The notes under the pieces: generated by a model
Told to the model about the DNA's origin: nothing
The model's database searches: none
The model's input: the letters and a program-made list of their open reading frames with translations, nothing else
Program-made: the position numbers and the translations under genes
From: Patescibacteria group bacterium
GTDB taxonomy: Bacteria; Patescibacteriota; Patescibacteriia; SG8-24; DYFX01
NCBI GenBank assembly: GCA_038062835.1
Contig: JBBTWH010000003.1
Span: 2,666 to 66,665 of the forward strand
Length of the DNA stretch: 64,000 nucleotides
Direction: 5' to 3'
Shown here: one piece after another, positions 35,875-59,723 of the stretch
How positions within the stretch are numbered: the stretch's first letter is position 1
Layout of the letters: each line of letters starts with the position of its first letter

Positions 35875-35880
35875 CTTCCT

Positions 35881-35919
35881 ATGGTAGAATCAGGTCATGA
35901 AGCCGCTTCATTCTACCAT
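35881..35919. promoter_or_regulatory. 10-bp inverted repeat ATGGTAGAAT/ATTCTACCAT bracketing the start codon of gene 35897 in the 22-bp divergent gap
   Basis: Perfect arms, 19-bp spacer, between divergent starts 35874(-) and 35897(+). Confidence 0.3.
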
Positions 35920-38023
35920 TTTGGCCTCGTTCGGCGGAGTGCTGGCCGCCTTGGGCATGGCTTCCGCGGCCTTCGCTTCCCTGAAACCGCTGGGCGGCCT
36001 GCTTTTCTTCGCCGGAACGGCCGTCCTCGTCGGACGCATGGCCTTCCCGGAGGAGCGGCGTCCGATCCGATGGACGTTCGGGCTTCTCGGCGCGTCGGCC
36101 CTGACGGCCGTCTTCGGGACCGTCGTCTACTACGCCTACAAGCTCGATACGATGGGACTTTCCTGGCTCCTGATCTCGATGCCGTGGGTCGTCTTCGCGT
36201 TCACGCCGCTCGCGAAGGACAAGCGCGAGCGCGCGGCCGAAGCGGAGATCAAGGTCGAGAAGACCGCGCCGGAGGATTCCCTTTCGGCCGTGCTTCTCGC
36301 GCTGACGGTCCTCTCCGACGCCGCCGCGCTCCGCTGGCTCGCCGGCGCGCGCACCGACGAGGCGATCCGTACGCCGTGGGAGGCGGTCCCGCCGATCTTC
36401 TTCCTCTGGATCGGCATCGCGACCGTCTGCCTCGCGGCCCTCGCGTACCGCAAGCGCTATCCGCATCTCGCCCTCGGCGCCGCGTCCCTGCATCTCTTCA
36501 CCTTGCTCGCCCCCGCCGCCTTGGTCTACGCGGTCGGATACGGCTTCGACCCGTTCGTCCACCAAGCCGCCGAACGCCTGGTCTCCGCCGTCGGCGAAAT
36601 CACGCCGAAGACGCCGTACTACGTCGGGCAGTACGCGCTCGTGACCGTCATCGCGAAGCTGTTCCGCATCGGCGCCGAAAGCGTCGACCGATACCTCCTC
36701 CCCGTCATGACGGCCGTCTTCCTGCCGGCCGCCGCAGCTTGGCTCCTGCGGCGCGGCTTCGGCGTCGCGCGCGGACTGGCGCTCGTCGGCGCCATGGGCG
36801 TGTTCCTCCTGCCGCTCGGCTCGTTCGTCTCGACGACCCCGCAGGGCGTCTCCAACCTGTTCTTCCTGCTGACCGTCATCGTCGGCGCCGCCTGGCTGCA
36901 CGCGCACCGTCCGCCGCTCGGCTTCGTGCTCGCGCTCGCCGCAGCATCCGCCGCCGCGCATCCTCTGGCCGGCATCCCGGCGCTCTTCGCGGCGGCGCTG
37001 CTCATGACCGTGAAGCTGCGCCACGACGGACTCGCGCTCCCGCGCATCTCCAAAGCGATCGTCTTCGGCATCCTGCTGGGCGCGGCGGCGCTGGCGGTCC
37101 CCTTCGCCTTCTCGCTCCGTGAAGGGACGGGCAGCCTGCCCATCGAAGCGGCTTTCAAAAAACCGATCGCGACGCTCGTCGAGAACGTGCCCTTCGAAGG
37201 GCCGGGACTCGAGACGCGCTATCGTCCCCTCCTCGACTTCGCGGAGTTCATCGACCGCAACTACGACCTCCTCTGGCTCATCATGGCCGGCGCGGGAGCA
37301 TGGCTCCTCGGCCGGCAAAAGCCTTTCCGCCGCTCGGCGCTCGCGCTCGGCGGCCTTTCCTTGGCGCTCCTGGCGGGTTCGTCCGTCCTGAGGACAGGCT
37401 TCACGTTCGAGGACGTCATCGGCTACGAGCAGGGCAACTACGCCGCCCGGCTGTATGAAGCGGGGCTCTTGGCCGCTTCGCCGCTCGTCCTGGCCGCTTT
37501 CGCCTGGTGGTGGCGCGCGCTCACGAAGACCGACGCCGCCGTGCGCTTCCTGATGGCGCTCGTCTTCGCCGCGGCCGTCGCCGCGCTGGCCTACGGCGCG
37601 TTCCCCCGCCTCGACGACTACCGCTGGAGCCGCGGGTATTCGACCTCGGCGCACGACGTCGAAGCCGTCCGCTGGATCGACACGCACGCCATCGGCCCGT
37701 ACGTCGTGCTGGCGAACCAGTCCGTCTCCGCCGCCGCGCTCCGCGAATACGGGTTCCGCACCTACTACGGCGACCAGTTCTATTATTCGATCCCGACCGG
37801 CGCGCCGCTGTATCAGAAATATCTCGAGATGGTCTACGACGCGCCCTCTCGCGCGACGATGGACGCCGCCATGCGCGATATCGGCGTGCGCCAAGCGTAC
37901 TTCGTCATCAACGACTACTGGACCGACGCGGGGCGCATCATCGACGCCGCGAAAAAAACCGCCGACGACTGGCAGGAGGTCGGCGACGGCAAGGTCTTCA
38001 TCTTCCGGTATACGCTCCGGTAG
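35897..38023 (+). CDS. Large polytopic membrane protein (putative GT-C-like glycosyltransferase/polymerase)
   Basis: 708 aa, at least 14 predicted TM helices; only plus-strand gene inside a minus-strand glycosylation cluster; antisense ORF is Arg/Gly junk. Confidence 0.5.
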   Translation: MKPLHSTILASFGGVLAALGMASAAFASLKPLGGLLFFAGTAVLVGRMAFPEERRPIRWTFGLLGASALTAVFGTVVYYAYKLDTMGLSWLLISMPWVVFAFTPLAKDKRERAAEAEIKVEKTAPEDSLSAVLLALTVLSDAAALRWLAGARTDEAIRTPWEAVPPIFFLWIGIATVCLAALAYRKRYPHLALGAASLHLFTLLAPAALVYAVGYGFDPFVHQAAERLVSAVGEITPKTPYYVGQYALVTVIAKLFRIGAESVDRYLLPVMTAVFLPAAAAWLLRRGFGVARGLALVGAMGVFLLPLGSFVSTTPQGVSNLFFLLTVIVGAAWLHAHRPPLGFVLALAAASAAAHPLAGIPALFAAALLMTVKLRHDGLALPRISKAIVFGILLGAAALAVPFAFSLREGTGSLPIEAAFKKPIATLVENVPFEGPGLETRYRPLLDFAEFIDRNYDLLWLIMAGAGAWLLGRQKPFRRSALALGGLSLALLAGSSVLRTGFTFEDVIGYEQGNYAARLYEAGLLAASPLVLAAFAWWWRALTKTDAAVRFLMALVFAAAVAALAYGAFPRLDDYRWSRGYSTSAHDVEAVRWIDTHAIGPYVVLANQSVSAAALREYGFRTYYGDQFYYSIPTGAPLYQKYLEMVYDAPSRATMDAAMRDIGVRQAYFVINDYWTDAGRIIDAAKKTADDWQEVGDGKVFIFRYTLR

Positions 38024-39278
38024 GTTTCGCGCGATACCTGATCGGTACCACGGGGCCCCGGTGTGCGAGCGCGGGGTCTTTTTCGTCATAGAGCGCGACC
38101 AGGCGCTCTGCGTGCCGGTCTTCCGTCAGGAGCTCGGCGGAGCGGCGGGCGGCCTTGGATCGGCCGGGCCAGGCACCCTTCTCGTCGCAGGCGCGCTTCA
38201 GCGCGGCGACGAGGGCGGCGACGTTCCCCGCCTCGAAGACGAGGCCGTTCTCGCCGTGACGCACCAGCTCGGCGGCGCCTCCGATGTCGGCCACGATCAC
38301 GGGCACGCCGTAGGCGAACGATTCGACGATGACGGTCGGGGCGTTCTCGTAGCAGAGCGAGGGCACGACGGCGTAGTCCGCCTTCGAGAACATCTCCATG
38401 AACTGCGTGGGGCTCTTCTTGCCGTAGAAGGCGACGCGGACATCCTTGCCGGCGGCCCGTCTGGCCTCGTCGGCGGCCGCGCCGGATCCGACCACGTCGA
38501 GACGGATCTTGGGACGGTCCTTGCTCAGGCGGCGGAACGCCTCGACGAGGAGCAGGATACCCTTGTGCGTCTCGATCTGGCCGAGGAACAGGAAGCGCGT
38601 CTCGACGGACGGCGCGTGCGGGGCGGGACGGACGCGAGGCGCGGGGTTCGGCAGGAAGACGGCCTGCGAGGCCGGGAAGAACCCGCGGACGCGGTAGAAA
38701 TCCAGCAGGAACTTCGACGGGGAGATGACGGCGTCGGGCGAACCCAACGCGCGGCGCGCGGAACGCGCGAACAGCGCCGAGACCGGGTCGGTCACGCCGA
38801 GACCGCTCTCCCTGCCCTTGATGATGAGGCCGGACGGCGCCGCGAGCTGGACGTCATGCAGGGTGTGCACGTGGCGGATGCCGAGCGAACGGATGACGCG
38901 CGGGACGGAGAGGCCGATGCCTTTGAGGCTGTGCGTGTGTACGACGTCGGGACGTTCTTTCTTCAAGATCGCCTCGACGCATTCAGCGGCGTGCGGGTTC
39001 CAGGCGTCCCATGCGTGCCAGAGCAGGCGCGACGGCGCGGAGTGGCGGCCGATGTCGCCGTAGAAGAAAAGGTTGAGCGGATGGAACCGCCAGACGCGGA
39101 TGCCGCCTTCGTCCGTCATCCGCGGAGCGACGCTCCCGTCGTCGCGCACCGGTTCGGCGGTGATGACGCAGACGTCGTGGCCGATGGCCTTGAGCGCCCT
39201 GGCTTCAGTCTCGACGACGCGCTCCGCTCCGCCGCGGGCGTAGGGAGGATATAAATTCGAAATCAGGCAGATGCGCAT
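37998..39278 (-). CDS. Family 4 glycosyltransferase
   Basis: MRICLISNLYPPYARGGAERVV GT4 N-domain, C-terminal nucleotide-sugar-binding domain; start trimmed. Confidence 0.8.
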   Translation of the reverse strand: MRICLISNLYPPYARGGAERVVETEARALKAIGHDVCVITAEPVRDDGSVAPRMTDEGGIRVWRFHPLNLFFYGDIGRHSAPSRLLWHAWDAWNPHAAECVEAILKKERPDVVHTHSLKGIGLSVPRVIRSLGIRHVHTLHDVQLAAPSGLIIKGRESGLGVTDPVSALFARSARRALGSPDAVISPSKFLLDFYRVRGFFPASQAVFLPNPAPRVRPAPHAPSVETRFLFLGQIETHKGILLLVEAFRRLSKDRPKIRLDVVGSGAAADEARRAAGKDVRVAFYGKKSPTQFMEMFSKADYAVVPSLCYENAPTVIVESFAYGVPVIVADIGGAAELVRHGENGLVFEAGNVAALVAALKRACDEKGAWPGRSKAARRSAELLTEDRHAERLVALYDEKDPALAHRGPVVPIRYRAKPTGAYTGR

Positions 39279-39285
39279 GCGCAGT

Positions 39286-39297
39286 AAGTATAGCAAA
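39286..39297 (-). promoter_or_regulatory. Extended -10 TTTGCTATACTT 10 nt upstream of the GT4 ATG (short-leader or leaderless transcript)
   Basis: Same 12-mer precedes the giant gene at 51188..51199. Confidence 0.45.
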
Positions 39298-39372
39298 ATC
39301 GTCCCCTCATTGACATCCTCATGCGTCATTCCGTAAGAACATCCCGTTACCGAAATTCAACCCCTGTCGCAA

Positions 39373-39894
39373 ATGCGTAACAAGAGGGAAACGGCACGGT
39401 TCTTGAATGAGGCTTTGGAAGCCGCTTCCTTCGGATTTGATGTGCTGCTGACGACCAGGAGCCACCAGCGCGTCCTTGCCGGACAAGGACTTGAAGGCAT
39501 ATGCAGAGTCGTCACCGAGCGCCGGGCGCGTGAAACGCGCGCCTGGCTCCGCGCCGCCAAACGAGCCCGACTTATCAAAATCACGCGCGCCGGGGATCGG
39601 ATGAAGGTCGCTTTGGCCCCGAAAGGCCGACGTATGCTGCTGGAAATGCGGATCCGTTCCGCGCCTCGTCTTCGCGGCGCGGAAAAGACATATGTCGCTT
39701 TCGATTTTCCTATCCCGCAAAGAAGCGCTCGTGACGCCTTCCGGCGTTTTCTGAAACGCACGGGATTCATAAAAATCCAAATGAGCCTTTGGTCTATTGG
39801 TCGGGACGCGGCGAAACCTATGCGGGACCTGCTCACGCGGGTAGGCGCTCGTGATTGGGTACGCGTCTTTCACGGAACCGAAAAAACGGCGTGA
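39373..39894 (+). CDS. PaaX-like/Cas2-fold small regulator (tentative), in a low-GC islet
   Basis: KTYVAFDFPIPQRSARDAFRRFLKRTGFIKIQMSLWSI resembles the PaaX C-terminal (Cas2-like) fold; local GC drop; antisense ORF 39319..39873 is junk-like. Confidence 0.4.
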   Translation: MRNKRETARFLNEALEAASFGFDVLLTTRSHQRVLAGQGLEGICRVVTERRARETRAWLRAAKRARLIKITRAGDRMKVALAPKGRRMLLEMRIRSAPRLRGAEKTYVAFDFPIPQRSARDAFRRFLKRTGFIKIQMSLWSIGRDAAKPMRDLLTRVGARDWVRVFHGTEKTA

Positions 39895-39926
39895 ACCGTT
39901 TTGCGACAGGTGACGTAAAACGGTTC
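39894..39926. terminator. Bidirectional hairpin (10-bp perfect stem GAACCGTTTT/AAAACGGTTC) containing the TTTGCGACAGG motif
   Basis: Between convergent genes; second nested hairpin AAAACGG/CCGTTTT. Confidence 0.5.
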
Positions 39927-41004
39927 AGGGTCGGTTTCCGGCGATGGCGGAGATGACGGCGCGATCGGCCGCGTGTCGGGCGTAGAGGCGTTCAGCGCGG
40001 TCGCGGGCCGCTCGGCCCATCGCGGCGGAGCGGGACTGATTATCGAACAGGCTGCCGATCGCTTCGACCAGCTTCTCGGGATCTGACGGCGGGGCGAGCA
40101 GACCAGTCACGCCCGGCTCGATGACGGAACGGACGCCGGGGAGGTCGCTGACGACGGACGGGACGCCGCTGGCCATGGCTTCGAGCGTGACGATGCCGAA
40201 CGCCTCGGAGCGGTCAATCGACGGCAGGACGTGGACGGCGGCGGATCGATATAGCGACGGGAGCTCGGCGTCCGGCACGCGTCCTAGGAATTTCACGCGA
40301 CCTTCGATGCCGAGCGCTTTCGCGCGGGCCTCGTAATCGGTACGCATGTCGCCGTCGCCAGCCACGAGCAGTCTGGCGCCGGGGACGCGGGCGACAGTCT
40401 TGGCGAACGCTTCGAGCAGGACAGTCACACCCTTGAAGTAGTGGGCACGGTCGAGACCGCCGACGAAGAGAACGGTCGGCTCGCCCTTCGGAGCATCGGG
40501 GCCAGGAACGAAACGTTCCGTATCCACGCCGAACGGCGTCTCGTGCACGCGGGCGTCGTCCTTGAAAGACGCCGCCTGCGACGAGGCGAGGTAGTCGCGG
40601 CTCGCCGTCAGGATGACGTCGGCGGATGCGAGGATCGTCCGCAGGAACAGCCTGCGGTACAGGCGGAAGACGGCACCTGCGAATCCCGTACCGACGGCGT
40701 CCATGTGGTACATGACGGCCAGGCGCGCGCGGCGGCCGAACATCTTCTTCCAAAGCCAGACCCATTCGGCGCCTCCGAAGAACGGATAGTGCAGTTCGAC
40801 GACGTCGAATCCGCGCAGTTTCCAGAGCAGCTGCGGCGCGCAAGCGGAATTTCCGACGCGGAACAGCGGACGCAGGTTCACTCCCGGCGCGAAAACGACG
40901 ACGTCATGTCCGGCGGACTTGAGCGCCTCGACGTGCGAGGCTGCGGCGTTGCCCATGCCGCCGCGATAGGGCGGATACGTCGATGCGACGACTGCGACGC
41001 GCAT
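39925..41004 (-). CDS. Family 4 glycosyltransferase
   Basis: MRVAVVASTYPPYRGGMGNAAASHVEAL...; start trimmed. Confidence 0.8.
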   Translation of the reverse strand: MRVAVVASTYPPYRGGMGNAAASHVEALKSAGHDVVVFAPGVNLRPLFRVGNSACAPQLLWKLRGFDVVELHYPFFGGAEWVWLWKKMFGRRARLAVMYHMDAVGTGFAGAVFRLYRRLFLRTILASADVILTASRDYLASSQAASFKDDARVHETPFGVDTERFVPGPDAPKGEPTVLFVGGLDRAHYFKGVTVLLEAFAKTVARVPGARLLVAGDGDMRTDYEARAKALGIEGRVKFLGRVPDAELPSLYRSAAVHVLPSIDRSEAFGIVTLEAMASGVPSVVSDLPGVRSVIEPGVTGLLAPPSDPEKLVEAIGSLFDNQSRSAAMGRAARDRAERLYARHAADRAVISAIAGNRP

Positions 41005-41006
41005 AG

Positions 41007-42101
41007 CTACCAGAAGAGGACGAGACGAACCAGCGTCCAATACATGGAGAACAGCGGGTTGGCGACGCGCGTCAGCAGCGTCGGCTGCATCTGCTGGAAG
41101 AGTATGCTTCCGGTGAAAAGCTTCGTCGCCTCTCGATCGGAAATCTTGCGGAGAGCCTGCACGCGCGCGCGGGCTTCGATCAGCTTCATACAGCCGGTCG
41201 GCGACAGGAAGTGGGCATAGGCGCGCAGCTTCTCCCGCCACCAGCCGCCCTTGAAAGCGAACGCCCAGAGGCCGAGCTCCATCGCCAGGAAGGCCGGGAG
41301 CGTCAGGAGCAGCGTCGGAAGGCGGAACATGCGCAGAATGACGATGAGCCGGTTGCGCTCCATCCAGAAATATTTCTTGATGCTGCGGGAGAACTCGTAT
41401 TTGTGGAAGACGACGGACGCCGGCGCGAGCACGACGCGCCAGCCCGCCAGGCGCGCGCGCCAGGAAAACTCGAGGTCCTCGTGATAGGCGAACAGCTCCT
41501 CGTCGAGCAGGCCGACCTCGCGGAGCGTCGCGGCGCGCATCAGCATGCCGGCGCCGCTGGCGTAGGCGATATCGCGGACATGGAGCTTCGCTTGCACCGA
41601 CGGGTCATGGAACGGCACGGACTCGCCGCCGGCGTATCCGAAGCCGAGGAAGTGGATCTCGTTGCCGTAGGTGTTCACCAGTTCGGTCCTGGGGTGGAGT
41701 CGCAAGAGGCTCTGTACGACACCGATGTCAGGGTCACCTTCGGCGACGCGCACGGCTTCCTCGAGAAATCCAGGCTGCGCTTCAGTATCTGGGTTCAGCA
41801 GATAGACGTAGTCGTAGCCCTCCTCGAGCGCGCGGCGGATGGCCTGATTGTTGCCTCCGGAAAATCCGAGGTTGTCGGCGTTCTTGAAAAAGACGCATGG
41901 GAATCCTTCCTTGGTGGCCGTGCCGTCCTCGGAAAGCAGTTCGCGCGCGATGAAGTCGCCGCTGCCGTCGGGACTGGCGTTATCGACGATCATCAACGTC
42001 GCCGCGCCGGGTTCGATGCCCGCTTCCGCGACGGCGCGAAAACAATCGGCCAGGTAGCGGCCGTGGTTCCAGGAAACGACGATGACGGCGGTCCTTTTCA
42101 T
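41007..42101 (-). CDS. Family 2 glycosyltransferase
   Basis: VIVVSWNHGRYL...IVDNASPDGS; DxD. Confidence 0.8.
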   Translation of the reverse strand: MKRTAVIVVSWNHGRYLADCFRAVAEAGIEPGAATLMIVDNASPDGSGDFIARELLSEDGTATKEGFPCVFFKNADNLGFSGGNNQAIRRALEEGYDYVYLLNPDTEAQPGFLEEAVRVAEGDPDIGVVQSLLRLHPRTELVNTYGNEIHFLGFGYAGGESVPFHDPSVQAKLHVRDIAYASGAGMLMRAATLREVGLLDEELFAYHEDLEFSWRARLAGWRVVLAPASVVFHKYEFSRSIKKYFWMERNRLIVILRMFRLPTLLLTLPAFLAMELGLWAFAFKGGWWREKLRAYAHFLSPTGCMKLIEARARVQALRKISDREATKLFTGSILFQQMQPTLLTRVANPLFSMYWTLVRLVLFW

Positions 42102-42427
42102 TCCTTGAGGTCCTTGAGCGCGAGCTCGCGGGCAAGCTCGGTGATCTGTCGTTCCTGGTCCTCGACTCGCGCGAACAGGCGGAATTGGAGATAAAAAAGC
42201 GCGGCGATGGAGAGGTAGACGACGACGTCAGCCCCGCGGCCGACGCCGAGAAGGCGCGCGGCTTCTGAAGCGGTCTCCGGACGCGTCACGACGGAGGCGA
42301 CTGCGGCCCACAGGAGCGTCCAGAGCGTGAGCTGCCGGAAGCCGATGCTTCTGCGACGGAAACGCGAGACGGCCGCGACGAAACCGAAGACGGCGACAGC
42401 GATCAGGATGATCTGGATGACGGTCAT
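42098..42427 (-). CDS. DUF2304-type small membrane protein (GT2 companion)
   Basis: 109 aa, 3 TM plus C-terminal coiled coil; overlapping both neighbours. Confidence 0.55.
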   Translation of the reverse strand: MTVIQIILIAVAVFGFVAAVSRFRRRSIGFRQLTLWTLLWAAVASVVTRPETASEAARLLGVGRGADVVVYLSIAALFYLQFRLFARVEDQERQITELARELALKDLKE

Positions 42428-42428
42428 A

Positions 42429-43103
42429 TCAGTCCAGGAAGCGGCGAAGGATGAGCTTGAGCGCCGTCTGCACGCCCACCGCGAAATTCTGCCCTTTCGA
42501 CAGGGAGTAATCGGTGTAGACGGCCTCGATCGGGATTTCCGCCAGGCGGAGGCGCTTGTCGACGATCTCCTTCACGAACTCCGAAGAGACTTCCATGCGC
42601 GAGGAGCGGAGACGGATGCGCTCGGCGGCGGCGCGCGTCATGCCGCGCAGGCCGCTCTGGCTGTCGGTCACCCATCTGCGGAAGAGGACGTAGGTGAGCG
42701 CGTTGCCGAGGAACTGGGCGAGGCGGCGGCGCGCCGGCATGTTCCCCTTGCCTTCAAGCATGCGCGAACCGATGACGAAATCGACGTCGCCCTCCGTGAG
42801 GCGATCGAAGGCCGCCTTGGCCGCCTCGGCGCGGTGCTGGCCGTCGGCGTCCATCGTGACGATGGCGTCCGCGCCGAGCCGGAGCGCGCCTTCGATGCCC
42901 GTACCGAGCGCGCCGCCGAGCCCTCGGTTGACGGCGTGGCGGACGACCGTCGCGCCCGCGGCCGCGGCGATCTCGGAAGTGCGGTCGGAAGAACCGTCGT
43001 CCACGACCAAGACGCGGTCGGCGACATGGAGCGCGCCGCGCACCGCTTCGCCGATCGTCTTCTCCTCGTTGTAGGCCGGAATGACGATGACTCTCTTTTC
43101 CAT
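42429..43103 (-). CDS. GT2 polyprenol-phosphate sugar synthase (DPM1/GtrB-like)
   Basis: VIVIPAYNEEKTIGEAV...LVVDDGSSDRT...DADGQH. Confidence 0.8.
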   Translation of the reverse strand: MEKRVIVIPAYNEEKTIGEAVRGALHVADRVLVVDDGSSDRTSEIAAAAGATVVRHAVNRGLGGALGTGIEGALRLGADAIVTMDADGQHRAEAAKAAFDRLTEGDVDFVIGSRMLEGKGNMPARRRLAQFLGNALTYVLFRRWVTDSQSGLRGMTRAAAERIRLRSSRMEVSSEFVKEIVDKRLRLAEIPIEAVYTDYSLSKGQNFAVGVQTALKLILRRFLD

Positions 43104-43104
43104 C

Positions 43105-44112
43105 CTACATGTTACGGGCCAAGCCCTTGGTCACGAGCGTGTATTCGATGGACCGCTTGAGGCCGTCTTCGAGTCGCACGAGCGGAATCCAGCCCAGCTC
43201 GTCGCCGGCCTTCCGGATGTCCGGCAATCCGAGCTGCGTCATGAAAAGCAGCGGAGCCTCGAAGACCAGTTTGGATTTGGAGTTCGTCATGGCGATGACC
43301 TTGCGCGCCACGTCCGCCAGATGGATGTCCTCGTCGCCGCCGAAATTCACGGGTCCGGGGTTCTTGCTCGTCTTCATGAGGCGCGCGATGCCGTCGACGA
43401 CGTCAGTGACGTAGACGAGCGACGTGCTGAATTTCTCGTCGCCGTAGACCACGAGGTCGCGCCCTTCGAGCGCGTCGATCACGAAGTCCGGGACCATCTC
43501 GCCGTCGTTCAGGCGCTGGCGCGTGCCATAGGTGCGGAAGATGCGCGCGACGCGGATGTCGAGGCCGAAGACGGACGCATAGGTGAAGCAGGCGCTCTCG
43601 GCCCACTTCTTGCCTTCGTCGTAGCAGGCGCGCGGCGAGGCGTGGTCGGTGACGCCGAGATCGGTCTCGACGAACTTTCCGCCTTCGGCGCGGCGCGGCC
43701 CGTAGACGACGGACGTCGAGGCGTGCAGGAGGCGCGCCTTGTGCTTCACGGCCATGTCGAGCACGTTGCGCATGCCGACGGAGTTCGCGAGGTACGTCTG
43801 GATGCGGAGGTTGTCGAACTTCTTGGCCGAAGTCGGGCAGGCCAAGTGATAGACTTCCTGGATGCCGCGGACGTTGATCTTGAAACGCGCGAGTTCAGGG
43901 AAGGACTCAAGGTCGAACGGCTCGTTGATGTCGAGCTTGATGAACTCGAAATCCGGGTTCTTCAGCATCGCTTCGATGTTGGAGACCTCGGAGGTGATGA
44001 AGCTGTCGACGCAGATGACCTGGTGGCCGTCAGCCAAGAGGCGCTCGCACAGGTGCGAACCGATGAAACCGGCCCCACCGGTCACGACTGCCACTCGTTT
44101 CTCGTCCGCCAT
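43105..44112 (-). CDS. uxs: UDP-glucuronate decarboxylase / UDP-xylose synthase (SDR epimerase-dehydratase family)
   Basis: VVTGGAGFIGSHL...RACYDEGKKWAES...RVARIFRTYGTRQRLNDGEMVPDFV matches UXS-type. Confidence 0.7.
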   Translation of the reverse strand: MADEKRVAVVTGGAGFIGSHLCERLLADGHQVICVDSFITSEVSNIEAMLKNPDFEFIKLDINEPFDLESFPELARFKINVRGIQEVYHLACPTSAKKFDNLRIQTYLANSVGMRNVLDMAVKHKARLLHASTSVVYGPRRAEGGKFVETDLGVTDHASPRACYDEGKKWAESACFTYASVFGLDIRVARIFRTYGTRQRLNDGEMVPDFVIDALEGRDLVVYGDEKFSTSLVYVTDVVDGIARLMKTSKNPGPVNFGGDEDIHLADVARKVIAMTNSKSKLVFEAPLLFMTQLGLPDIRKAGDELGWIPLVRLEDGLKRSIEYTLVTKGLARNM

Positions 44113-44156: not shown

Positions 44157-45809
44157 CTAGGTACCCGTGGGCAACAGGTTCTTGTCGTGGTCGATGGTCG
44201 GGACGCGGCTGCGCTCGGCTTCCGGCTCGTAATCGAAGACGGACTGGATGGCCGGTCCGACGCGGTAGTTGATGAAGAACGCCTCCGAAATGTCGTCGAT
44301 CTTGGTGTTCCATTCCGGGCCGTAGAGGCCCTCCGCGACCGCTTCAGACGTCACGTGCCGCAGGAGTCCGTTACGGCTCACGGCGTAGATCTTAGGATCG
44401 GTCTGGATCTTCAGCATCCTGTAGCCCGGACGGTACGTGACGTTGCCTCCGAGCTGATAGCGCGCCATCTCGTCGCGGCCGATGACGCGGACGGTCGGGG
44501 TGACGGGGAACCACGAACGGAACGTCTTCTCGTTCGGGAAGACGTAGCGGCGTCCGTCACCCGCCAGATAATAGACGGCGGAAGAAGCGGCGGTCTTGAT
44601 CAGACGTCCGCGCCACGATGGGGACTCGGGGAGCGGCGCGGGCGGATGTCCGCCGCCCAAGAGCGCGGCCTGGACGGCCTTGACGGCCGCGGCCGCATCG
44701 ACTTGTCCGGCGCCGAGATGCCCCGCGTACGGGCCGTTCAGCTGGTTCACGTCCTTGGAGGTCGCGCGCAGGACGTCGCGCAGGGCGTCGGCGTCGAGAG
44801 TCGGATCCATCGACGCGACGAGCGCGGCCACGCCGGAGACGACCGGCGCCGAGAGCGACGAGCCGAACCAGGAATCGCCGTAGGCCTGGTCGAAGCCGGA
44901 GATGGCGGGGCGATATGCCTGGGTCGTGAAGAAGCTCTCGCCAGGGGCGGAGATGCCGACGCAATCGGAACCGTAGCTGGAGAAGCTCGACTTCGCGCCG
45001 TTGCGGTCGAGCGAGGCGACGCCGAGGACGAGCCGCTCGCCGTTCGGTCCGCGATAGCAGGCGGGATACGACGGATAGATGTTGAGATCGCCTCCCTTGT
45101 CGGTGTCGCCTTCGTTGCCCGCGGCTGCGACGACGAGTATGCCGGCGTCGTGCGCCGCGCGCAGCGCGTCGGCGAGGGTCTGGCTGTAGTTCTGTCCGGT
45201 GAAGCTGACGTTGATGACTTTGGCCTTGGCCGCGACGGCGTAGCGGATGGCGCGCACGACTCCGAGCGTGTTGCCTGATCCGTCGGCATCGAGGACGCGC
45301 AGCGGCATGATGCCGACGTTCCAGTTGATGCCGACGATGCCTTCGGCGTTCCCGCCGGCGGCACCGATGATGCCCGCGACGAGCGTGCCGTGGTTCGCGC
45401 CGTCTTTGGCGCTGCCGGCACCGATTTCCGGATTCGGATCTGAATCGCCGTCGACGAAATCCCAGCCCCGCGCATCGTCGACGTAGCCGTTGCGGTCGTC
45501 GTCGATGCCGTTGCCGGCTATCTCGCCCGGATTCCTCCAGATGCGGTCGCGCAGGTCCGGGTGCATGAGGTCCACGCCTGAATCGAGCACGGCCACCGTG
45601 ACCGTCGGCGAGCCCTTGGCGAAATCCCAGGCTTCGGGAAGCCTGACGGCGTTCAGGTACCACTGCTCGCCGAAAAGCGGATCGTCAGGCACGGCGGCCA
45701 GGACAGGCTGGATGATGAAAGCGAAAAACAGGGCCGTCGTCGCGGCATATCGCGCAAAAACCTCGTAAATACGGCATTTTCCCATGCTTTTTTGTCCTGA
45801 GATTGCCAT
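44157..45809 (-). CDS. Subtilisin-like (S8) serine protease with C-terminal roughly 140-aa module shared with the giant surface proteins
   Basis: Catalytic D (VAVLDSGVD), H (HGTLVAGIIGA), S (GSSLSAPVVSGVAAL); signal peptide; C-term AVYYLAGDGRRYVFPN...GGNVTYRPGYRMLKIQTDPKIYAVSRNGLLRHVTSE; alternative start MGKCRIY at about 45785. Confidence 0.85.
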   Translation of the reverse strand: MAISGQKSMGKCRIYEVFARYAATTALFFAFIIQPVLAAVPDDPLFGEQWYLNAVRLPEAWDFAKGSPTVTVAVLDSGVDLMHPDLRDRIWRNPGEIAGNGIDDDRNGYVDDARGWDFVDGDSDPNPEIGAGSAKDGANHGTLVAGIIGAAGGNAEGIVGINWNVGIMPLRVLDADGSGNTLGVVRAIRYAVAAKAKVINVSFTGQNYSQTLADALRAAHDAGILVVAAAGNEGDTDKGGDLNIYPSYPACYRGPNGERLVLGVASLDRNGAKSSFSSYGSDCVGISAPGESFFTTQAYRPAISGFDQAYGDSWFGSSLSAPVVSGVAALVASMDPTLDADALRDVLRATSKDVNQLNGPYAGHLGAGQVDAAAAVKAVQAALLGGGHPPAPLPESPSWRGRLIKTAASSAVYYLAGDGRRYVFPNEKTFRSWFPVTPTVRVIGRDEMARYQLGGNVTYRPGYRMLKIQTDPKIYAVSRNGLLRHVTSEAVAEGLYGPEWNTKIDDISEAFFINYRVGPAIQSVFDYEPEAERSRVPTIDHDKNLLPTGT

Positions 45810-45844: not shown

Positions 45845-48529
45845 TTACGACGTCGTCAATATCGGTGAAACGACGGGTAATCCCGTGATTTCGTCGCCGG
45901 TCCGAGGCACGTAGTAGCCGTCCGGCACGTCGCCCCAGACGAAATCCGCGCCGCCAAGCAGGCGGACCTCCAGCGTGACGCCGCTCATGACGGCGAAATC
46001 GTCGGTCTTGAGAGAAAGGGAGAATTCCGAAGTCGTGCCGGCGGCGAGGAGCGGCTCCGCATCGGTCGCGAATTCGAATTCCAGGACGCCCTCGTCTCCA
46101 TAGGCCGAAGCGAGACCCTGCGGCGTCATGTCGGCGACGCCGCCGCGTACGATGCCGTAGCGGATGGAACCCCAGACGTCCTCTCCGACGATCTCGGATC
46201 CGGACGCCAGGAAGCGGCGGAGCTCGACGATGCCGTTATCGTCGGCCGCGTCGCCGTCGACGTCGGCCCAGCGCTCCAGCGCGTCGTTGTCCGCACCATC
46301 GAAAGCGGCATCGCTCGGCTTGAGGCGAAACGTCATCTTCTTGACTCGCGACGCGCCTTCAGGAGCGGACGTCAGGCTGAAGCGCATGACCTCGACGGTG
46401 CGTCCGCGCGCGACGGTTCCGGTCGGCGTCGCGGACGCGCGGCTCGCCGTCATTTCAGTCAGGCGCACGGACAAGTCCGATGCCGCGGACGTCCGCGTGA
46501 ACGTCGCGGCGCCGAAATCGCCTTCTCCGAACGTCCTGCCTTCCGCTTCCGACGAGAACACCGTCGGACGGTCCCCGGGGAAGGCGATCTGCAAGCGCTC
46601 GCCCGAGACGGAACGGCCAGTCGCGGCGGAAACCTGACCGTATACGGCCACGGTGACGGAGCCGCCGCGAGGGACGCGGAGAGAGAGTCCGCTGAAGGTA
46701 GCGTCGTTGCCCGAAAAAACCGATGCCGCCGTGCGCACGGCGCCGTCGGCGTCCTGATAGCTCACGCGCAGCGAAGCGAGCGAGACGTGCGCCGCGCCGA
46801 CCGATGTGAAGGTCAGCATCGGGACGTCGAAGGCGTCGTGCGTCGCGGAGATATCGAGCGTGCCGATTCGCGCCTCGCGCCCCGCCACGACGGCGCCGGA
46901 GGCCCCGGTCCACTCGAAATCCAGCCCTCCGTGCTTGCGCACCGTCAGCGCGTATCTCGGCGACGTTCCGCCGTTAGGCTCGGCACCGGCGGCTTCGAGC
47001 CTGACGCCGAGCGCGTCGAATACGGCCACGTCGCGGGCGACGTCGCCGATGTCGAAGGAAAGGCGGTCGTCATGGTCCTCTATCGGCGCTTCGCGGCGCA
47101 AGTCGCCTCGGAGGACGTAGGTCGCGCTCGTGCCTGCCGGCAGGGCGAGGTCGAGGCCGCTGAAGACGGGGCGGCCATCGAACGGCATCGGCACCGGGCC
47201 GGCGACGGTGCGTCCATCTCCGTCGACGAGGCGGAGGGAGGAAACGACGTCGGAGACGCGCGTCTCCGTGCCGTTATCCGCGTCGGCGCCCGCTCGGAAC
47301 CCTGCGACGCCTTCTTGCTCGTCAAGATAGCTTTGAAACGAGACGCTCCTGACTCGCGCGACGGCGGCGGAACCCGCGCGGAAGACGAACGACGCGAGCG
47401 CGACGTCAGCCGAGCCTCGCACCCGGACGTCTTCCTCCGGCACTGGCGCGGCGGAAACCTCGAAGGTCATCTTGCCGACGGACGCCGTCGGCGCGACCAA
47501 GTCGAGCTTCGGCAGGAACGCGAGCGATGAACCGGAGGCGTCTTCGATCACGACGCGGGCGACGGGTATGCTGGCGCGATATTCCTCGCCGGAAGGAAGT
47601 TCGGGATCGAACTTCGCGACGAGCCGCAATTTCACGTCGGAACCGGCCGGAACGTCCCACGCCCCTCCGAATTCGAGCGTCTGCCGCTGGTCGAGCGCTG
47701 AGTCAAGCTCGGGGGAAATCATGCCGAAGACGTCCCTGCCGCCGGCGTCGACCCAGCGTACGTCCTTCAGGTTGAGCCGCGCGTTCACTCCACGCACTAG
47801 GCCGCCTTGATCGGAATCGGCGCCTTGGCCTGAGGCCGGCGCCCCCAGCACGGCGTCGAGGATGACGGGCAGCTGTCGGACGCGCGCCGAGGTCGCGGTG
47901 CGCAAACGGAGCTCCATCAGCGTCCCCTCCTGTCCGGCGGACGGCGAAGCGGCGGCCGCGTAAGCGCTGAAGGTCGGCGTGGCAGGGAGCGCCCCGAGCG
48001 GGACATCCTCCATATCCTTGTCCACTCCGATCGTCGGCACGGCGACGCGTTCGGCGCCGGTGTCGTACTGGGAACACAGCGTGATAGGCGCGCCGAGATC
48101 GTAGTCGACGAAAAACGCGTCCGGCACGTCGTCGATCTGGACGTTCCAGTTCGCGCCGAACAGGCAGGCGGCGACGGCTTCGGATCCGACGTGCCGAAGC
48201 ACGCCGCCCTTCGACACGGCGTAGACTTTCGGGTCGGTCCGTATCTTCACCATCCGCGTCCCGGGACGATACGTGACGTTACCGCCGAGCGCGAGCTCGG
48301 CAAGTTCCTCCGGTGATACCGTCTTCACCGTCGCGAAATCTTCGTACCACGAGAAGTACGAGGCAGCGTTCGAAAAGACGTAGCGCTTCCCGTCCGCGCC
48401 GACGTAATAGACGGCAGGGTTTTGGGGCGACTTCACCAAATCACCCGCCGAGGCCGCGAGGAGCGGCGACGGCGACAGGAAGGCGAGGAGCGCGGCGATG
48501 GCGAGTCGGATCCTCATGGTTTCGTTCAT
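45845..48529 (-). CDS. Giant secreted surface protein, paralog 1 (894 aa)
   Basis: Signal peptide; N-terminal shared module (AVYYVGADGKRYVFSN...GGNVTYRPGTRMVKIRTDPKVYAVSKGGVLRHVGSE); beta-rich Ig-like body; DGADNDALERWADVDGD motif; ATGA overlap with paralog 2. Confidence 0.7.
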   Translation of the reverse strand: MNETMRIRLAIAALLAFLSPSPLLAASAGDLVKSPQNPAVYYVGADGKRYVFSNAASYFSWYEDFATVKTVSPEELAELALGGNVTYRPGTRMVKIRTDPKVYAVSKGGVLRHVGSEAVAACLFGANWNVQIDDVPDAFFVDYDLGAPITLCSQYDTGAERVAVPTIGVDKDMEDVPLGALPATPTFSAYAAAASPSAGQEGTLMELRLRTATSARVRQLPVILDAVLGAPASGQGADSDQGGLVRGVNARLNLKDVRWVDAGGRDVFGMISPELDSALDQRQTLEFGGAWDVPAGSDVKLRLVAKFDPELPSGEEYRASIPVARVVIEDASGSSLAFLPKLDLVAPTASVGKMTFEVSAAPVPEEDVRVRGSADVALASFVFRAGSAAVARVRSVSFQSYLDEQEGVAGFRAGADADNGTETRVSDVVSSLRLVDGDGRTVAGPVPMPFDGRPVFSGLDLALPAGTSATYVLRGDLRREAPIEDHDDRLSFDIGDVARDVAVFDALGVRLEAAGAEPNGGTSPRYALTVRKHGGLDFEWTGASGAVVAGREARIGTLDISATHDAFDVPMLTFTSVGAAHVSLASLRVSYQDADGAVRTAASVFSGNDATFSGLSLRVPRGGSVTVAVYGQVSAATGRSVSGERLQIAFPGDRPTVFSSEAEGRTFGEGDFGAATFTRTSAASDLSVRLTEMTASRASATPTGTVARGRTVEVMRFSLTSAPEGASRVKKMTFRLKPSDAAFDGADNDALERWADVDGDAADDNGIVELRRFLASGSEIVGEDVWGSIRYGIVRGGVADMTPQGLASAYGDEGVLEFEFATDAEPLLAAGTTSEFSLSLKTDDFAVMSGVTLEVRLLGGADFVWGDVPDGYYVPRTGDEITGLPVVSPILTTS

Positions 48530-51180
48530 TGGATGATCATGCCCGGGGCGACGACAGGGAGCCCTCTCACTTCGCGGCCGTCCAGCGGCGCGGCGTTGCC
48601 GGAGTCCGAGTCCATCCAGAGGAACTCCTCGGCGCCGAACAGCTCGACCCCGAGGCTCCTCTGTCCGACAGGGAAGGCGCTCGTCCTCAGGCCGAGCGCG
48701 AAAGTCGCCGTCTCGCCGGCCTCGATCGCGAGCTCGGAACCCGAGGCGAAATCGATCTCGACGTAGCCGGCGTCGACCGTCGCGCTGTCGCGTCCTTGCG
48801 GCGTGGAGTCCTTGCCGCTCTGCGTGTACATGCCGTAGCGGATCGACGCGTCGCTCCCCTCTCCGATGACTTCAGCGCCGGAAACGGAAATCTTGCGCAG
48901 GTCGATGACGTCGTTGTCGTCGATGACGTCGCCGTCGATGTCGGCCCAGCGTTCGAGCGCATCGTTGTCCGCGCCATCCGTTCCCGCGTCGCCGGCCTTG
49001 ATGCGGAAGACCATTCGCTTCACGCGCGCGCGGCCTTCCGGTCCGGCCGTCAGCGTGAAGCGCAGGACTTCCTCGGACGCGCCGCGCGCGATGGGGCCGC
49101 TAGGCGTCGCGTAGGCCCGCGAAGCCGAAAGTTCCGTCAGCCGGAGCTGCAGGTCGGCCGCGACGTTCGAGGTCACGGCGAAACCATGGCCCGCAGCGAG
49201 ATCCGTCCCGCTGAAATCGCGGCCCTCCGTCACCGAGGCGAATCCGAAGTTCCGGTCCGCGGCGAACCGGAACCGGAGGCGCGCGCCGGATACGCTCGCA
49301 TACGATTCGACGACGTCAGCCTGGAAAGAGATGTAGGCCTTCTTGTCTTTTGGGACGTGGATGGCGAGGCCCTTGAAGAAGGCGTCGCCGCCGACGAACT
49401 CTCCCGTCACCGAGACGTTCGCGCCCTTGGCGTCGATATAGAACAGCCGGAGGGCACCGATCGGCGCGCGGTCCACGCCGGTGAACGGGAAGGTGAGGCT
49501 CGTGATGGTGAAATCGTCGTACGACGCCGCGGCGACGATGTTGCCGAGCTCGACCGGGCGGCCGACGACGGCCTTGGCGGAACTGCCGGCGAAATCGAGC
49601 GCCAGCGTACCGTGCTGGCGGACCGTCAGCGCGTACACGGGACGCGTGCCGCCGTTCGGGGCGGTCCCGTACGCCTCGACCGCGTCGCCGGAGGCGTCGA
49701 CGATGACGACGTCCTTCGCCGCGTCGACGACGTCGAAGGCGACGATGTCGGGGCGCGCCTCAATCTGGGCGTCGCGATCCAAGTCCCCGCGCAGGGCGTA
49801 GACGCCGGCCGAACCGGCGGGCAGGACGAGTGCGAGGCCCTCGAATCGCACGCGGCCGTCGTACGGCACCTCGACGGGCCCCGCGACGCGCGCGCCGGAC
49901 TGGTCATGCAAGCTGACGGCGCCGACGATATCGCGGACGCGCGTCTCGGTCCCGTTGTCCGCGTCGCCGCCCGCGAGGTAGCCGGCGCCGCCTTCCTGCT
50001 CGTCGAGATATCCCTGGAAAGCGATGGCGCGCAGCGTCTGCGTCAAAGCGGCGGCGTTGAACGTGAAAGCCGCGAGTTCGACGCTCTGGGCGCCGCGCAC
50101 CTGCGTCTTCGGACCATGGAACTCCGCAGCGGCGATCTCGAGCGCGTCCTTGCGCACCTGGACGATCCCGCCCGCGAGATCCGTCTTGGGAAGGAACGCG
50201 GCCGGACGTCCGTCCGCGCCGAAGACTTCCGCTCGCGAAGTCACGGCGATGGCGCGATACGGTTCGGCGATCGGCGTCTCCTCATCGAACGTCGCCGTCA
50301 GCCGAAGACGGGTCTCCCCTGCCGGAACCCTCAATCCGCCCGCGAATTCGAGGACGTACTCCTGATCGTCGGACGTGGACAAGGAGACGTCGAGCGTGCC
50401 GAAGACGGACGCGCCGCCGGCGTCGACGAAGCGTATCCTCGTGAGATTCGCACGGACGGAATCTCCGCGGACGAGGCCGCCCAAATCACGATCCGCGATG
50501 CCGGACAAGGCGGTCAACTTCACGGGCAGGCGCCGGATCTCGAGCGGAACCGACGTCGCGAGCAGGAGTTCCATCAGCGCGGCCTCCTTGCCGGCCGTGG
50601 CGATCGTGCTGACGGGCGCGAGGCTGAACGTCGGCGTCGAAGGCAGGACCGCCGGCGCCGCGCCCAGACGCCTGTCCTCGGAGATGGTCGGCGCCGAGGC
50701 TTTCTCGGCCGACGGGTCGAATCCGTCGCAGGCGATGATCGGATCGCCGAGGCGATAATTCGTGAAGGACTCGACTGGAACATCCTCGACAGCTCCGCGC
50801 CACGCCGAACCGTACAGGCAATCCGCGATGCCTTCCGAAGCGACGTGCCGCAAGACGCCGCCGCGCGCGACCGCGTAGGTCTTCGGGTCGGTGTCGATCT
50901 TGACCAAGCGCGTGCCGGGGCGATAGGTGACGTTCCCGCCGATGCGGCGCGACGACATCTCCGATGCCGAAATCGTCCTCACCGTGCCGAAGCCTTCGTA
51001 CCAGCTGAAGAAGACCGAGGTGCCGGTGAAGACGTAGCGCATGCCGTCGGTGCCGAGATAATAGACGGCGGGATCGGACGATGTCCTGATGAGATCCCCG
51101 GCGGAAGCGACCGAAAAAGGCTTGGGCGCGAAAAACCCGATGACGGCGAGAGCACAGACGATGAATAGCCACCGGCGCAT
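48526..51180 (-). CDS. Giant secreted surface protein, paralog 2 (about 884 aa from ATG MRRWLFIV)
   Basis: Same architecture as paralog 1; table start is a TTG; the ATG at 51180 lies 8 nt after a TGCTATACT extended -10. Confidence 0.7.
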   Translation of the reverse strand: MRRWLFIVCALAVIGFFAPKPFSVASAGDLIRTSSDPAVYYLGTDGMRYVFTGTSVFFSWYEGFGTVRTISASEMSSRRIGGNVTYRPGTRLVKIDTDPKTYAVARGGVLRHVASEGIADCLYGSAWRGAVEDVPVESFTNYRLGDPIIACDGFDPSAEKASAPTISEDRRLGAAPAVLPSTPTFSLAPVSTIATAGKEAALMELLLATSVPLEIRRLPVKLTALSGIADRDLGGLVRGDSVRANLTRIRFVDAGGASVFGTLDVSLSTSDDQEYVLEFAGGLRVPAGETRLRLTATFDEETPIAEPYRAIAVTSRAEVFGADGRPAAFLPKTDLAGGIVQVRKDALEIAAAEFHGPKTQVRGAQSVELAAFTFNAAALTQTLRAIAFQGYLDEQEGGAGYLAGGDADNGTETRVRDIVGAVSLHDQSGARVAGPVEVPYDGRVRFEGLALVLPAGSAGVYALRGDLDRDAQIEARPDIVAFDVVDAAKDVVIVDASGDAVEAYGTAPNGGTRPVYALTVRQHGTLALDFAGSSAKAVVGRPVELGNIVAAASYDDFTITSLTFPFTGVDRAPIGALRLFYIDAKGANVSVTGEFVGGDAFFKGLAIHVPKDKKAYISFQADVVESYASVSGARLRFRFAADRNFGFASVTEGRDFSGTDLAAGHGFAVTSNVAADLQLRLTELSASRAYATPSGPIARGASEEVLRFTLTAGPEGRARVKRMVFRIKAGDAGTDGADNDALERWADIDGDVIDDNDVIDLRKISVSGAEVIGEGSDASIRYGMYTQSGKDSTPQGRDSATVDAGYVEIDFASGSELAIEAGETATFALGLRTSAFPVGQRSLGVELFGAEEFLWMDSDSGNAAPLDGREVRGLPVVAPGMIIQ

Positions 51181-51187
51181 ATGAATG

Positions 51188-51199
51188 AAGTATAGCAAA
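51188..51199 (-). promoter_or_regulatory. Extended -10 TTTGCTATACTT 8 nt upstream of the giant paralog 2 ATG
   Basis: Identical to the element at 39286..39297. Confidence 0.45.
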
Positions 51200-54300: not shown

Positions 54301-55012
54301 GGAGGGTGACGGAGTCAGCCACCATCGCGGAGCCGCCGTTGTTCGAGACGTTGAACTTCAGGAAGTTCACGCCCGTCGCGCCCTTCGGAAGGGTCGCGCC
54401 AGCCGGCGAGTCAGAGGCGAGCGAGACGGAAGCCGTGCCCGAGACGCCAGCGGTCGACAAGTTCTTGTCGGCGTTGATCGACTGGGACGAGCTCATCTCG
54501 GCCGTCTTGTTGTAGTCGGAGCAAGACGCGTTGATGGCGGCGCCGACGGAGTAGTTCGTGAAGAACGCGTCCGAGACGTCGTGAATCATCGTGTTCCAGG
54601 CCGAGCCGTACAGGGTGACGGCGCAGGCCTCGGAAGGCACGTGGCGAAGGACGCCGCCGTGCGCGATCGCGTAGGTCTTCGGGTCAGACTGGATCTTGAG
54701 CATCAGCACGCCCGGGCGATAGGTGACGTTGCCACCGATCTGGATGGACGCGAGGTCAGCGTCGGAGATGGTCATGACGGACGAGAAGTCCGCGTACCAG
54801 GTCTTGTAGGCCTTGTCGTTGGTGAACACGTAGCGCTTTCCGTCGGAACCGCAGTAGTACACCGCGGGGAGGGAACCCTTGATCAAGCTACCGCTCGTGC
54901 AGCCGGCGGCAGACGCTTTCAAGGGAGCGACCAGGACGGACGCCATCATCGACCAAAGGATGGTCGAGAGGACGATGCCCACGGTCAAGCTTTTTCGGAA
55001 CGTGTCTGACAT
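51353..55012 (-). CDS. Giant secreted surface protein, paralog 3 (1219 aa)
   Basis: Signal peptide MSDTFRKSLTVGIVLSTILWSMMASVLVAPLKASAAG; shared N-terminal module; about 490 aa identical to paralog 4. Confidence 0.75.
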   Translation of the reverse strand: MSDTFRKSLTVGIVLSTILWSMMASVLVAPLKASAAGCTSGSLIKGSLPAVYYCGSDGKRYVFTNDKAYKTWYADFSSVMTISDADLASIQIGGNVTYRPGVLMLKIQSDPKTYAIAHGGVLRHVPSEACAVTLYGSAWNTMIHDVSDAFFTNYSVGAAINASCSDYNKTAEMSSSQSINADKNLSTAGVSGTASVSLASDSPAGATLPKGATGVNFLKFNVSNNGGSAMVADSVTLRRVGPGATTDLSSVYLYEGSSRLTTGRSVNSSTNEVTFTGLNLSLAAGQTRTLWVAVDIATGAAAGNVHAMELSKAMSGTTQLSGSPFTGNNFTLAGTTVGSLTIAKTGTITAPKAGEMEAKIAEFTVAAGSSEDVRFERLTIFQGGNLSAANLTNLKLKQAGLTIATAASFDANLRATFSLSAPGMLLEKGATKTFQVYGDIGGGARAADSLKLYTEESSDVRGVGQTFGQGVTVTRTAYDGDSCTSSAGDCSYSTVEAGPVTVALKGPFPTDRATYAKDAELLRFTMVVQNRTEVRRMQIKLTASTSGAGASGLINTSTPNYTDVKIINTTSGAAWWGPSDLSGTGDAGANDLNQTLTFTDVQSLEPGVVYEFAVTADASTSITSGESVTATRLAFGTSDLRNTDNSTFLTPSSDVVPSGDMAGFAQTMYSAYLGAGLNSLAVSQSYVKGATSILALGLSFGSETGTVTKLSSLTIKGFIDADGSSDYVQGQDVDVSGTVSVSDVITSCWLIDAATGAMRGQPKSPTSGTGGVMTFAGLDWDIDSIGATGLLYCDLSNGAYLNSNAERIAFKVVANTDATVQDAVGNSVSFAAASFPINGTPSVVLTTANSGTMTYQIAPDDTESEAGLVLANTTAVLGKIRLTAANEELKQTKIRISLVGAVQNSVVSMSLYDGAALVAGPVPMSGQNADFSGFNFVVPKDASKTLTVKAILNSISGGATSGADLQITTDLTTPTAGTFEYRGTGSSTVVSTIATTDVTGRNKVLRKTKPTVSLASLPTSTLTNGTMVLSRITVTADVAEQVSLKAIQWAVTKSNAGMLIANGGGQSAVREVGQGAHISGTTTQSIGCASNGGTACTFQSRFTSEQVISAGASKTYELVLTVAGAASNHSLITNIASDTDLVTGELASVAVDADGVDDLDGTNAATAIYNFAWSDNSAIPHNDVSGATDDAADAAASDDWTNGLYVEVLPTDAQSVLMP
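53519..54987. repeat. 1469-bp segment identical to 58028..59496 (5' parts of giant paralogs 3 and 4)
   Basis: Identical antisense table ORFs 53718..54515 and 58227..59024 (offset 4509) plus my own line comparison of both edges. Confidence 0.85.
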
Positions 55013-55413: not shown

Positions 55414-55436
55414 ATGGTTAGAGGATAACATATGGG

Positions 55437-55467
55437 GTCCTAGCACAGGCAATATGTGGGGTGTCAA
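55437..55467 (-). promoter_or_regulatory. Conserved promoter TTGACACCC...TGCTAGGAC (paralog of 31668..31697)
   Basis: Same -35/extended -10 and spacing. Confidence 0.5.
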
Positions 55468-59530: not shown

Positions 59531-59723
59531 AAGTTGAGAACCTTTCTTCAAGTTTAGTGCCGACAGTACGGCCTTGCGGCCTCGACCTTGTGATACTGCC
59601 AGTGCCCCAAAGGGGCGGGCCCGTCCGGAGATTTCCTCCTGGATCGGAGCGCGGGGCGTACTCACATAGAGGAGTAGGCCACGAGCTTCGATCCAAGAAG
59701 CTTCCTGGACGGACGGTGGATAT

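Follow-up and report, generated by a model that had tools for sequence, protein, structure and literature searches.

According to a preprint survey, S-layer proteins combine conserved lattice domains with diverse anchoring domains (10.1101/2024.05.28.596244). The Cwp proteins of C. difficile share one type of anchor, CWB2, which is found on the major surface protein, on its paralogues and on a processing protease, the cysteine protease Cwp84, which cleaves SlpA; the corresponding genes are clustered and sometimes adjoin glycosylation genes (PMC5842191). Further relevant systems are the EccB proteins of type VII secretion machines, for the repeat domains of which a peptidoglycan-binding role has been hypothesised only, and the endolysin wall-binding domain PlyCB, which forms an octameric ring (PMC4769845).

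Here we analyse 64,000 nucleotides of Patescibacteria DNA, referred to throughout as 'the window', in which a single module recurs on an S8 serine protease (S8) and on four very large proteins (the giants, G1 to G4). The Patescibacteria (CPR) constitute a large and mostly uncultured share of bacterial diversity. Cryo-EM has revealed S-layer-like envelopes on their cells and, to our knowledge, their surface proteins are almost entirely annotated as 'hypothetical'. The module provides a single sequence handle on thousands of probable surface-anchored proteins in this group, through which the surface proteome, including S-layer candidates, proteases, M23 wall hydrolases, cupredoxins and phosphatases, would become listable from sequence alone.

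Five copies of a module on a protease and four giant proteins

A first-pass annotation of the window had noticed a resemblance between the C-terminus of S8 and the N-termini of all four giants. The shared segment, of ~143 residues, is real (Table 1), with boundaries drawn from the alignment differing from those first given by only about 20-55 nt, and the five genes that carry it are co-directional, all lying on the minus strand. When the S8 tail was compared with the N-termini of the giants by BLASTP, E-values of 1e-43 to 1e-46 placed the similarity far above chance. In a MAFFT alignment of the five copies, 50 columns were invariant and the mean column identity was 71%; the S8 copy was 49-53% identical to those of the giants, well clear of the 25% below which the first-pass annotation had considered that the resemblance would dissolve, and the copies in G3 and G4 did not differ by a single residue. 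A six-frame HMM scan of the 64-kb window found exactly these five copies and no others, and the consensus string originally proposed agrees with a family consensus built from 326 near-full-length modules.

Table 1. Module-bearing genes, the adjoining glycan-synthesis genes and the five module copies in the window
Feature	Position (nt)	Strand	Evidence
Glycan-synthesis cluster: two GT4, two GT2, DUF2304, NAD-dependent sugar epimerase/dehydratase	37998..44112	-	Pfam
S8 (subtilase) gene, 550-aa ORF	44157..45809	-	Pfam Peptidase_S8, E 4e-47
Giant G1 gene, 894 aa, G2 paralogue	45845..48529	-	ORF
Giant G2 gene, 890-aa ORF	48526..51198	-	ORF
Giant G3 gene, 1219 aa	51353..55012	-	ORF
Giant G4 gene, 1254-aa ORF	55901..59665	-	ORF
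Module copy 1: S8 protease C-terminal domain, aa 403-550	44160..44603	-	MAFFT alignment; HMM, E 3e-64; AF2 model, pLDDT 94.6
Module copy 2: G1 N-terminus, aa 31-174, directly after signal peptide	48008..48439	-	Alignment and HMM
Module copy 3: G2 N-terminus, aa 36-179	50662..51093	-	Alignment and HMM
Module copy 4: G3 N-terminus, aa 43-185	54458..54886	-	Alignment and HMM
Module copy 5: G4 N-terminus, aa 91-233 of long ORF	58967..59395	-	Alignment and HMM

S8 has a signal peptide and a catalytic domain (aa 69-355) in which the D76/H140/N232/S318 motifs are intact, and a Pro-rich linker leads from there to the module. An identical (100%) database protein, P0382, is named 'S8 family peptidase, Patescibacteria group bacterium'; its gene model is 542 aa long, which by length arithmetic sets the start of S8 near 45785, and this later start is a likely reason why an exact-sequence look-up with the 550-aa ORF returned no match. 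The start of G1 and the stop of G2 overlap by 4 nt, and the true start of G2 is probably an ATG six codons into its ORF. G3 is 100% identical to the NCBI protein AAB554_01020, which likewise comes from a 'Patescibacteria group bacterium' MAG. The 1209-aa protein P0268 (locus tag AAB554_01030), from the same MAG as G3, was taken to be G4, which would move the true start to about 59530; the length of G4 is thus probably 1209 aa.

The giants are paralogous along their full length, with identities of 48% between G1 and G2, 71% between G3 and G4, and about 26% in the body between G1/2 and G3/4. Their module copies were therefore inherited together, leaving S8 as the sole independent case of domain shuffling within the window. 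The giants had no significant match in Pfam, NCBIfam or PHROGs, nor did G1 and G3 have any in a search of PDB sequences, and structure prediction confidently modelled the body of G3 as a chain of about nine sandwich domains, entirely of beta structure (pLDDT 89.3). At the DNA level, G3 (53520-54993) and G4 (58029-59503) are 99.86% identical over a 1,475-bp stretch that encodes the signal peptide and the module together with the initial ~300 aa of the body, and these genes have only one other alignable stretch, about 79% identical; this suggests that the paralogues have recently recombined or undergone gene conversion, or that the identity is an artefact of the assembly.

Each of the five proteins has one hydrophobic segment resembling a signal peptide and no further hydrophobic, transmembrane-like segment, and inspection of the giants' C-termini by eye found no LPXTG motif. 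The first-pass annotation had described the module as the mature N-terminus of the giants. The hydrophobic signal segment is followed by ASA or SAG 3-8 residues ahead of the module, which would place the module at the start of the predicted mature proteins.

A large family almost confined to the Patescibacteria

As the first-pass annotation had found, the module cannot be assigned to a named family: nothing significant was retrieved from Pfam, NCBIfam or PHROGs, and in Pfam there was no significant match at E<=0.1 and none even at E<=10. A 70-sequence profile searched against PDB sequences matched antibody heavy chains only, spuriously, through an 'AVYYC' motif. The homologies that had been suggested, to SLH, CWB2 or the Cu-amine-oxidase N-domain, are not borne out by any profile match. 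For SLH (PF00395), no module copy gave a Pfam match at E<=10, and the same profile was readily detected in other homologues of the giants (P0323, P0336 and P0351); the CW_binding_2/CWB2 profile (PF04122) was not matched either, and Cu_amine_oxidN1 (PF07833) was absent both from the Pfam results and from the fold matches. PG_binding_1 (PF01471) was likewise rejected, as there was no Pfam match and the secondary structure of the module is predicted to be mixed alpha/beta.

The family is nevertheless large. Among 1.84 billion cluster representatives searched with a profile, at least 4,715 module proteins matched at E<=1e-3, each representing a cluster at 50% identity, and 2,032 at E<=1e-30; at least 565 module loci were confirmed when one genome per GTDB species was considered. 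Where the source organism is named, it almost always belongs to the Patescibacteria (Uhrbacteria, Buchananbacteria, Paceibacter, Minisyncoccota and Parcubacteria). The few short contigs labelled otherwise, as Acidobacteriota, Binatia or an archaeon, may possibly reflect mis-binning. Several copies can occur in a single genome of ~1 Mb; for instance, the complete genome CP129476 has at least six module genes at three loci. This is an uncurated, large and lineage-specific family, and it merits a curated Pfam or InterPro entry.

The module is most commonly N-terminal with a C-terminal extension (153 of the 264 proteins analysed). In 68 it is essentially stand-alone, at ~180 aa, in 29 it is C-terminal and in 12 it is present in multiple copies; its pI ranges from 4.5 to 9.2. 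Its fusion partners, extracellular domains unrelated to one another, include peptidases (M23, S8, C25 and trypsin-like), Ig-like domains (Big_1/5/7), Invasin_D3 and a diverse remainder comprising ice-binding-like, beta-helix, purple acid and alkaline phosphatase, CopC, cupredoxin, GH5 and LamG domains. A phage origin, or use as a phage cell wall-binding domain, was rejected, as only one viral contig with a module was found in IMG/VR and no lytic domain was detected on its module protein.

This range of architectures also bears on a reading of the module as a pro-domain, intramolecular chaperone or inhibitor of S8 proteases, the pro-domain having been raised in the first-pass annotation as a potential refutation. 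The presence of the module on an S8 protein is all that recommends this idea, which is effectively refuted: the module lies C-terminal to the catalytic domain, it matches neither Inhibitor_I9 nor any other Pfam model, and proteases make up only a small minority of the module proteins analysed. No match to an N-terminal pro-domain was found in S8 itself using Pfam.

Elsewhere in the Patescibacteria, a conserved trio of genes encodes a stand-alone module protein of ~180 aa and proteins of ~480 aa and ~270 aa, each with an N-terminal module (loci L012, L024, L037, L048, L054, L074, L075 and L077, about 5.2-8.2 kb in each). Cupredoxin domains occur in database proteins of ~250-260 aa whose module is N-terminal, so that the ~270-aa protein of the trio may be a cupredoxin too, and the trio could represent a surface redox or copper system.

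Predicted fold and structural neighbours

The first-pass annotation had proposed structure prediction followed by fold comparison as a check on the module, and this yielded a confident fold with few structural neighbours. The AlphaFold2 model, based on the 70-sequence alignment, has a pLDDT of 94.6 and a pTM of 0.85. Its two halves resemble each other (both strand-strand-strand-helix-strand-helix), and two short helices come after them. In a profile-profile comparison, 51 columns of the two halves align in register; the match is weak (P=0.003) but consistent with the model, according to which the module would be an internal duplication of an alpha/beta unit of ~55-60 residues.

Only two groups of structures were matched by this fold: the best matches were to the EccB repeat domains of type VII secretion systems (PDB 3x3m, 4kk7 and 7nps), and weaker ones were to endolysin wall-binding domains of the PlyCB/Lys170 type. 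The module is nonetheless distinct from EccB. It shares no sequence similarity with the EccB repeats and has no match to PF05108 in Pfam or NCBIfam searches; the module proteins lack the transmembrane helix and the central core domain of EccB, and have two repeats rather than four; and whereas EccB is part of a secretion machine, the module is joined to enzymes and adhesins. Membership of the EccB family was consequently rejected on the absence of a profile match, on the signal peptide being the sole hydrophobic segment and on the number of repeat units. For the EccB-repeat fold, which is poorly understood, the module would offer an independent second setting.

The best NCBIfam match of the S8 catalytic domain is to the mycosin model of type VII secretion, TIGR03921 (E 2.4e-49, below cutoff). 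The joint occurrence of a mycosin-like protease and an EccB-like module might be taken as a link to type VII secretion, but this was set aside as probably coincidental because neither similarity is more than generic or weak and the window ORFs scanned included no further component of such a system.

Exchange of N-terminal domains in homologues of the giants

The most informative evidence on the role of the module came from the homologues of G3. The body of this protein, stripped of its module, was used as the query, and nearly all of the best 120 homologues aligned over almost the whole of it, with alignments starting within the first ~20 query residues. The N-terminal slot ahead of the body was occupied by the module in 81 of these 120 proteins, by PG_binding_1 (PF01471) in 16, by SLH (PF00395) in eight and by other sequences in 15. 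In Pfam scans PG_binding_1 and SLH alike fell at residues ~30-145, where the module lies here, and the giants that have them belong to other Patescibacteria lineages (Peregrinibacteria, Liptonbacteria and Jorgensenbacteria). Both are classical wall anchors, modular and found on many surface proteins as the module is, and they fill exactly the same slot in orthologous giants; they are, by contrast, unrelated to it in sequence, with no HMM match, and in predicted fold, SLH and PG_binding_1 domains being helical. The alternation of the module with two wall anchors in one slot of a conserved protein is the pattern expected of interchangeable anchors, and the one reported for S-layer proteins in the preprint survey (10.1101/2024.05.28.596244), with the exchange speaking for an equivalence of position rather than a sameness of function.

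Several of the 15 other N-termini comprise two or three units of ~55 residues with a motif like that of the module. Such tandem units, with the motif 'VY.I..G.KR.I....F...GY.W..V', are found in P0305, P0327, P0296 and P0315; they belong to no Pfam family, and profiles of the module halves match these N-termini weakly, which suggests a wider repeat superfamily.

The main alternative to an anchor is that the module is a docking or oligomerisation domain, through which the proteins join each other, or a stand-alone scaffold, instead of contacting the wall directly. Both of the structurally similar groups work in oligomers, with EccB5 forming part of the periplasmic assembly of ESX-5 and PlyCB its ring, and the cell wall-binding domains of Lys170 and LysIME-EF1 also oligomerise. 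The many stand-alone ~180-aa proteins, the neighbouring genes of the conserved trio, all of which encode the module, and the clustering of several module proteins at one locus would each suit such a role. Yet the domains that replace the module in orthologous giants, SLH and PG_binding_1, are wall-binding rather than docking domains, and we regard docking as unlikely.

A probable anchor to the cell envelope

We consider it fairly probable, on the basis of comparison and modelling, that the module is a non-covalent cell-envelope anchor equivalent to SLH or PG_binding_1, built from a duplicated unit of the EccB-repeat/PlyCB type with a short helical tail. The first-pass annotation had proposed a common anchoring or targeting module, and this idea gains support from the exchange with PG_binding_1 and SLH in the N-terminal slot, the structural neighbours, the diversity of extracellular fusion partners and the lack of any other transmembrane segment or LPXTG motif. 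Wall binding is accordingly what we infer from the comparison of homologues. Three features of the family count against an anchor: the stand-alone proteins, about a quarter of those analysed, are not obviously explained by anchoring alone; the range in pI means there is no uniform basic character; and the module is rare in viruses, with the single viral contig encoding a module protein in which no lytic domain was detected.

Anchoring would proceed through Sec export and removal of the signal peptide, after which the module would bind a wall component, either peptidoglycan or a wall-linked glycan, and so keep the remainder of the protein on the cell surface. Synthesis of peptidoglycan by this organism is very probable, since FtsW/RodA is encoded at 27698-28807 in the window. 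In this way the module would tether the four paralogous giants, strings of beta-sandwiches as modelled for G3 and candidates for S-layer or adhesin proteins, and the C-terminal copy would tether S8 into the layer that they form. S8 may then mature or trim the giants, as Cwp84 does SlpA in C. difficile. Were the module to bind a specific wall component, a module-GFP fusion could be used to label or capture uncultured CPR cells, much as endolysin cell wall-binding domains are used for pathogens.

Patescibacteria are often episymbionts, and the module might alternatively bind the wall or surface of a host or partner cell, with the giants serving as attachment adhesins and S8, M23, C25 and GH5 enzymes acting on the host envelope. 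Its taxonomic restriction to the Patescibacteria, its fusion to degradative enzymes (M23, proteases and GH5), the similarity of its fold to the targeting domains of phage endolysins and the resemblance of the giant body to adhesin and cohesin-type domains are all in keeping with this. We judge it improbable, however, because a position directly after the signal peptide is the cell-proximal end in the typical topology of S-layer proteins and adhesins, because the module is exchanged with SLH, classically a binder of the cell's own secondary wall polymer, and because proteins with no other anchor would be lost from the cell.

Pairing of the protease with the giants

The arrangement of a giant followed by an S8-module gene recurs in eight other genomes (L001, L002, L003, L021, L026, L036, L059 and L078). 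These eight are all the S8-module loci whose upstream flank could be read, and in each of them the gene directly upstream, in the same orientation, encodes a giant of the family of G1 to G4; the S8-module architecture (~540 aa) is kept in 50 clusters at 90% identity. This conserved adjacency supports a functional link between S8 and the giants. The first-pass annotation had envisaged that the module co-localises the enzyme with its likely substrates, which is plausible given the conserved gene pair and the analogy with C. difficile; the giants would then be putative substrates of S8. At the loci examined with PG_binding_1 or SLH giants no adjacent S8 was present, and the locus with an SLH giant has a second SLH protein. 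In more distant relatives of S8, FG-GAP/VCBS repeats take the place of the module; as these repeats are not a known wall anchor, the replacement is uninformative on anchoring or, if read as an alternative to the module, counts against it being an anchor.

The same adjacency might suggest that S8, or else an export or attachment machinery, reads the module as a tag for sorting or recognition, in the manner of T9SS C-terminal domains or sortase signals; the position of the module at the very start of the mature proteins, as predicted, would fit such a tag. This is very unlikely, given that S8 itself has the module, that most module loci have no S8 nearby, that the module occurs at either terminus and in tandem, and that a confidently folded, two-lobed domain of 143 residues is unlike a cleavable tag.

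With the module as an anchor, the logic of the locus resembles that of the Cwp system, in that one type of anchor is found on a candidate major surface protein, its paralogues and a protease, encoded by clustered genes that adjoin glycosylation genes (PMC5842191). The two differ in the fold of the anchor, in the class of the protease (serine here, cysteine in Cwp84) and in phylum, and processing of the giants is putative. Several features of the giants are S-layer-compatible, namely the signal peptide, the anchor slot, the all-beta bead string of G3 and the neighbouring glycosylation genes, and these are compatible with glycosylated S-layer or adhesin proteins; comparison would make the giants S-layer candidates. 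A bolder version, which we regard as possible but doubtful, is that the module defines an undescribed, Patescibacteria-specific family binding a wall polymer and marking the anchored surface proteome of these ultra-small cells. The ~900-1250-aa giants would then be their long-sought S-layer protomers and S8 their maturation protease, as an independent system of the Cwp84/SlpA kind, or else the ligand would be on a host cell and the module would mediate episymbiotic attachment.

Glycosylation genes also accompany some of the giants with other anchors. In two Liptonbacteria-like loci (L081 and L082, 11.5-15.7 kb), the genes that come after the PG_binding_1 giants encode two membrane proteins of the Wzy_C family as well as glycosyltransferases. 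Enzymes of the Wzy_C family include oligosaccharyltransferases that O-glycosylate proteins, and this neighbourhood suggests that the giants may be O-glycosylated.

Other genes of the window

The window has a G+C content of about 65%. Three long ORFs (397, 590 and ~710-736 aa; 32502-38089) that separate the Lon/FtsW region from the glycosyltransferase cluster had no Pfam match at E<=1e-5, the third being ambiguous in strand (35879-38089 on the minus strand or 35897-38023 on the plus strand). Between G3 and G4, a small coiled-coil ORF (55111-55467, minus strand) has weak XhlA/DUF7310-like matches, and upstream of G4 lies a gene for a DUF5667 protein (59724-60911, minus strand). An ORF that runs past the end of the window (62090-64000, plus strand) encodes a GHL15 hypothetical glycoside-hydrolase domain with FG-GAP repeats. 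Two further probable surface proteins lack the module: a Kelch-repeat beta-propeller protein (15958-17175, minus strand), and a protein of 947 aa (18529-21372, plus strand) that combines bacterial TSP3 repeats with Big_13.
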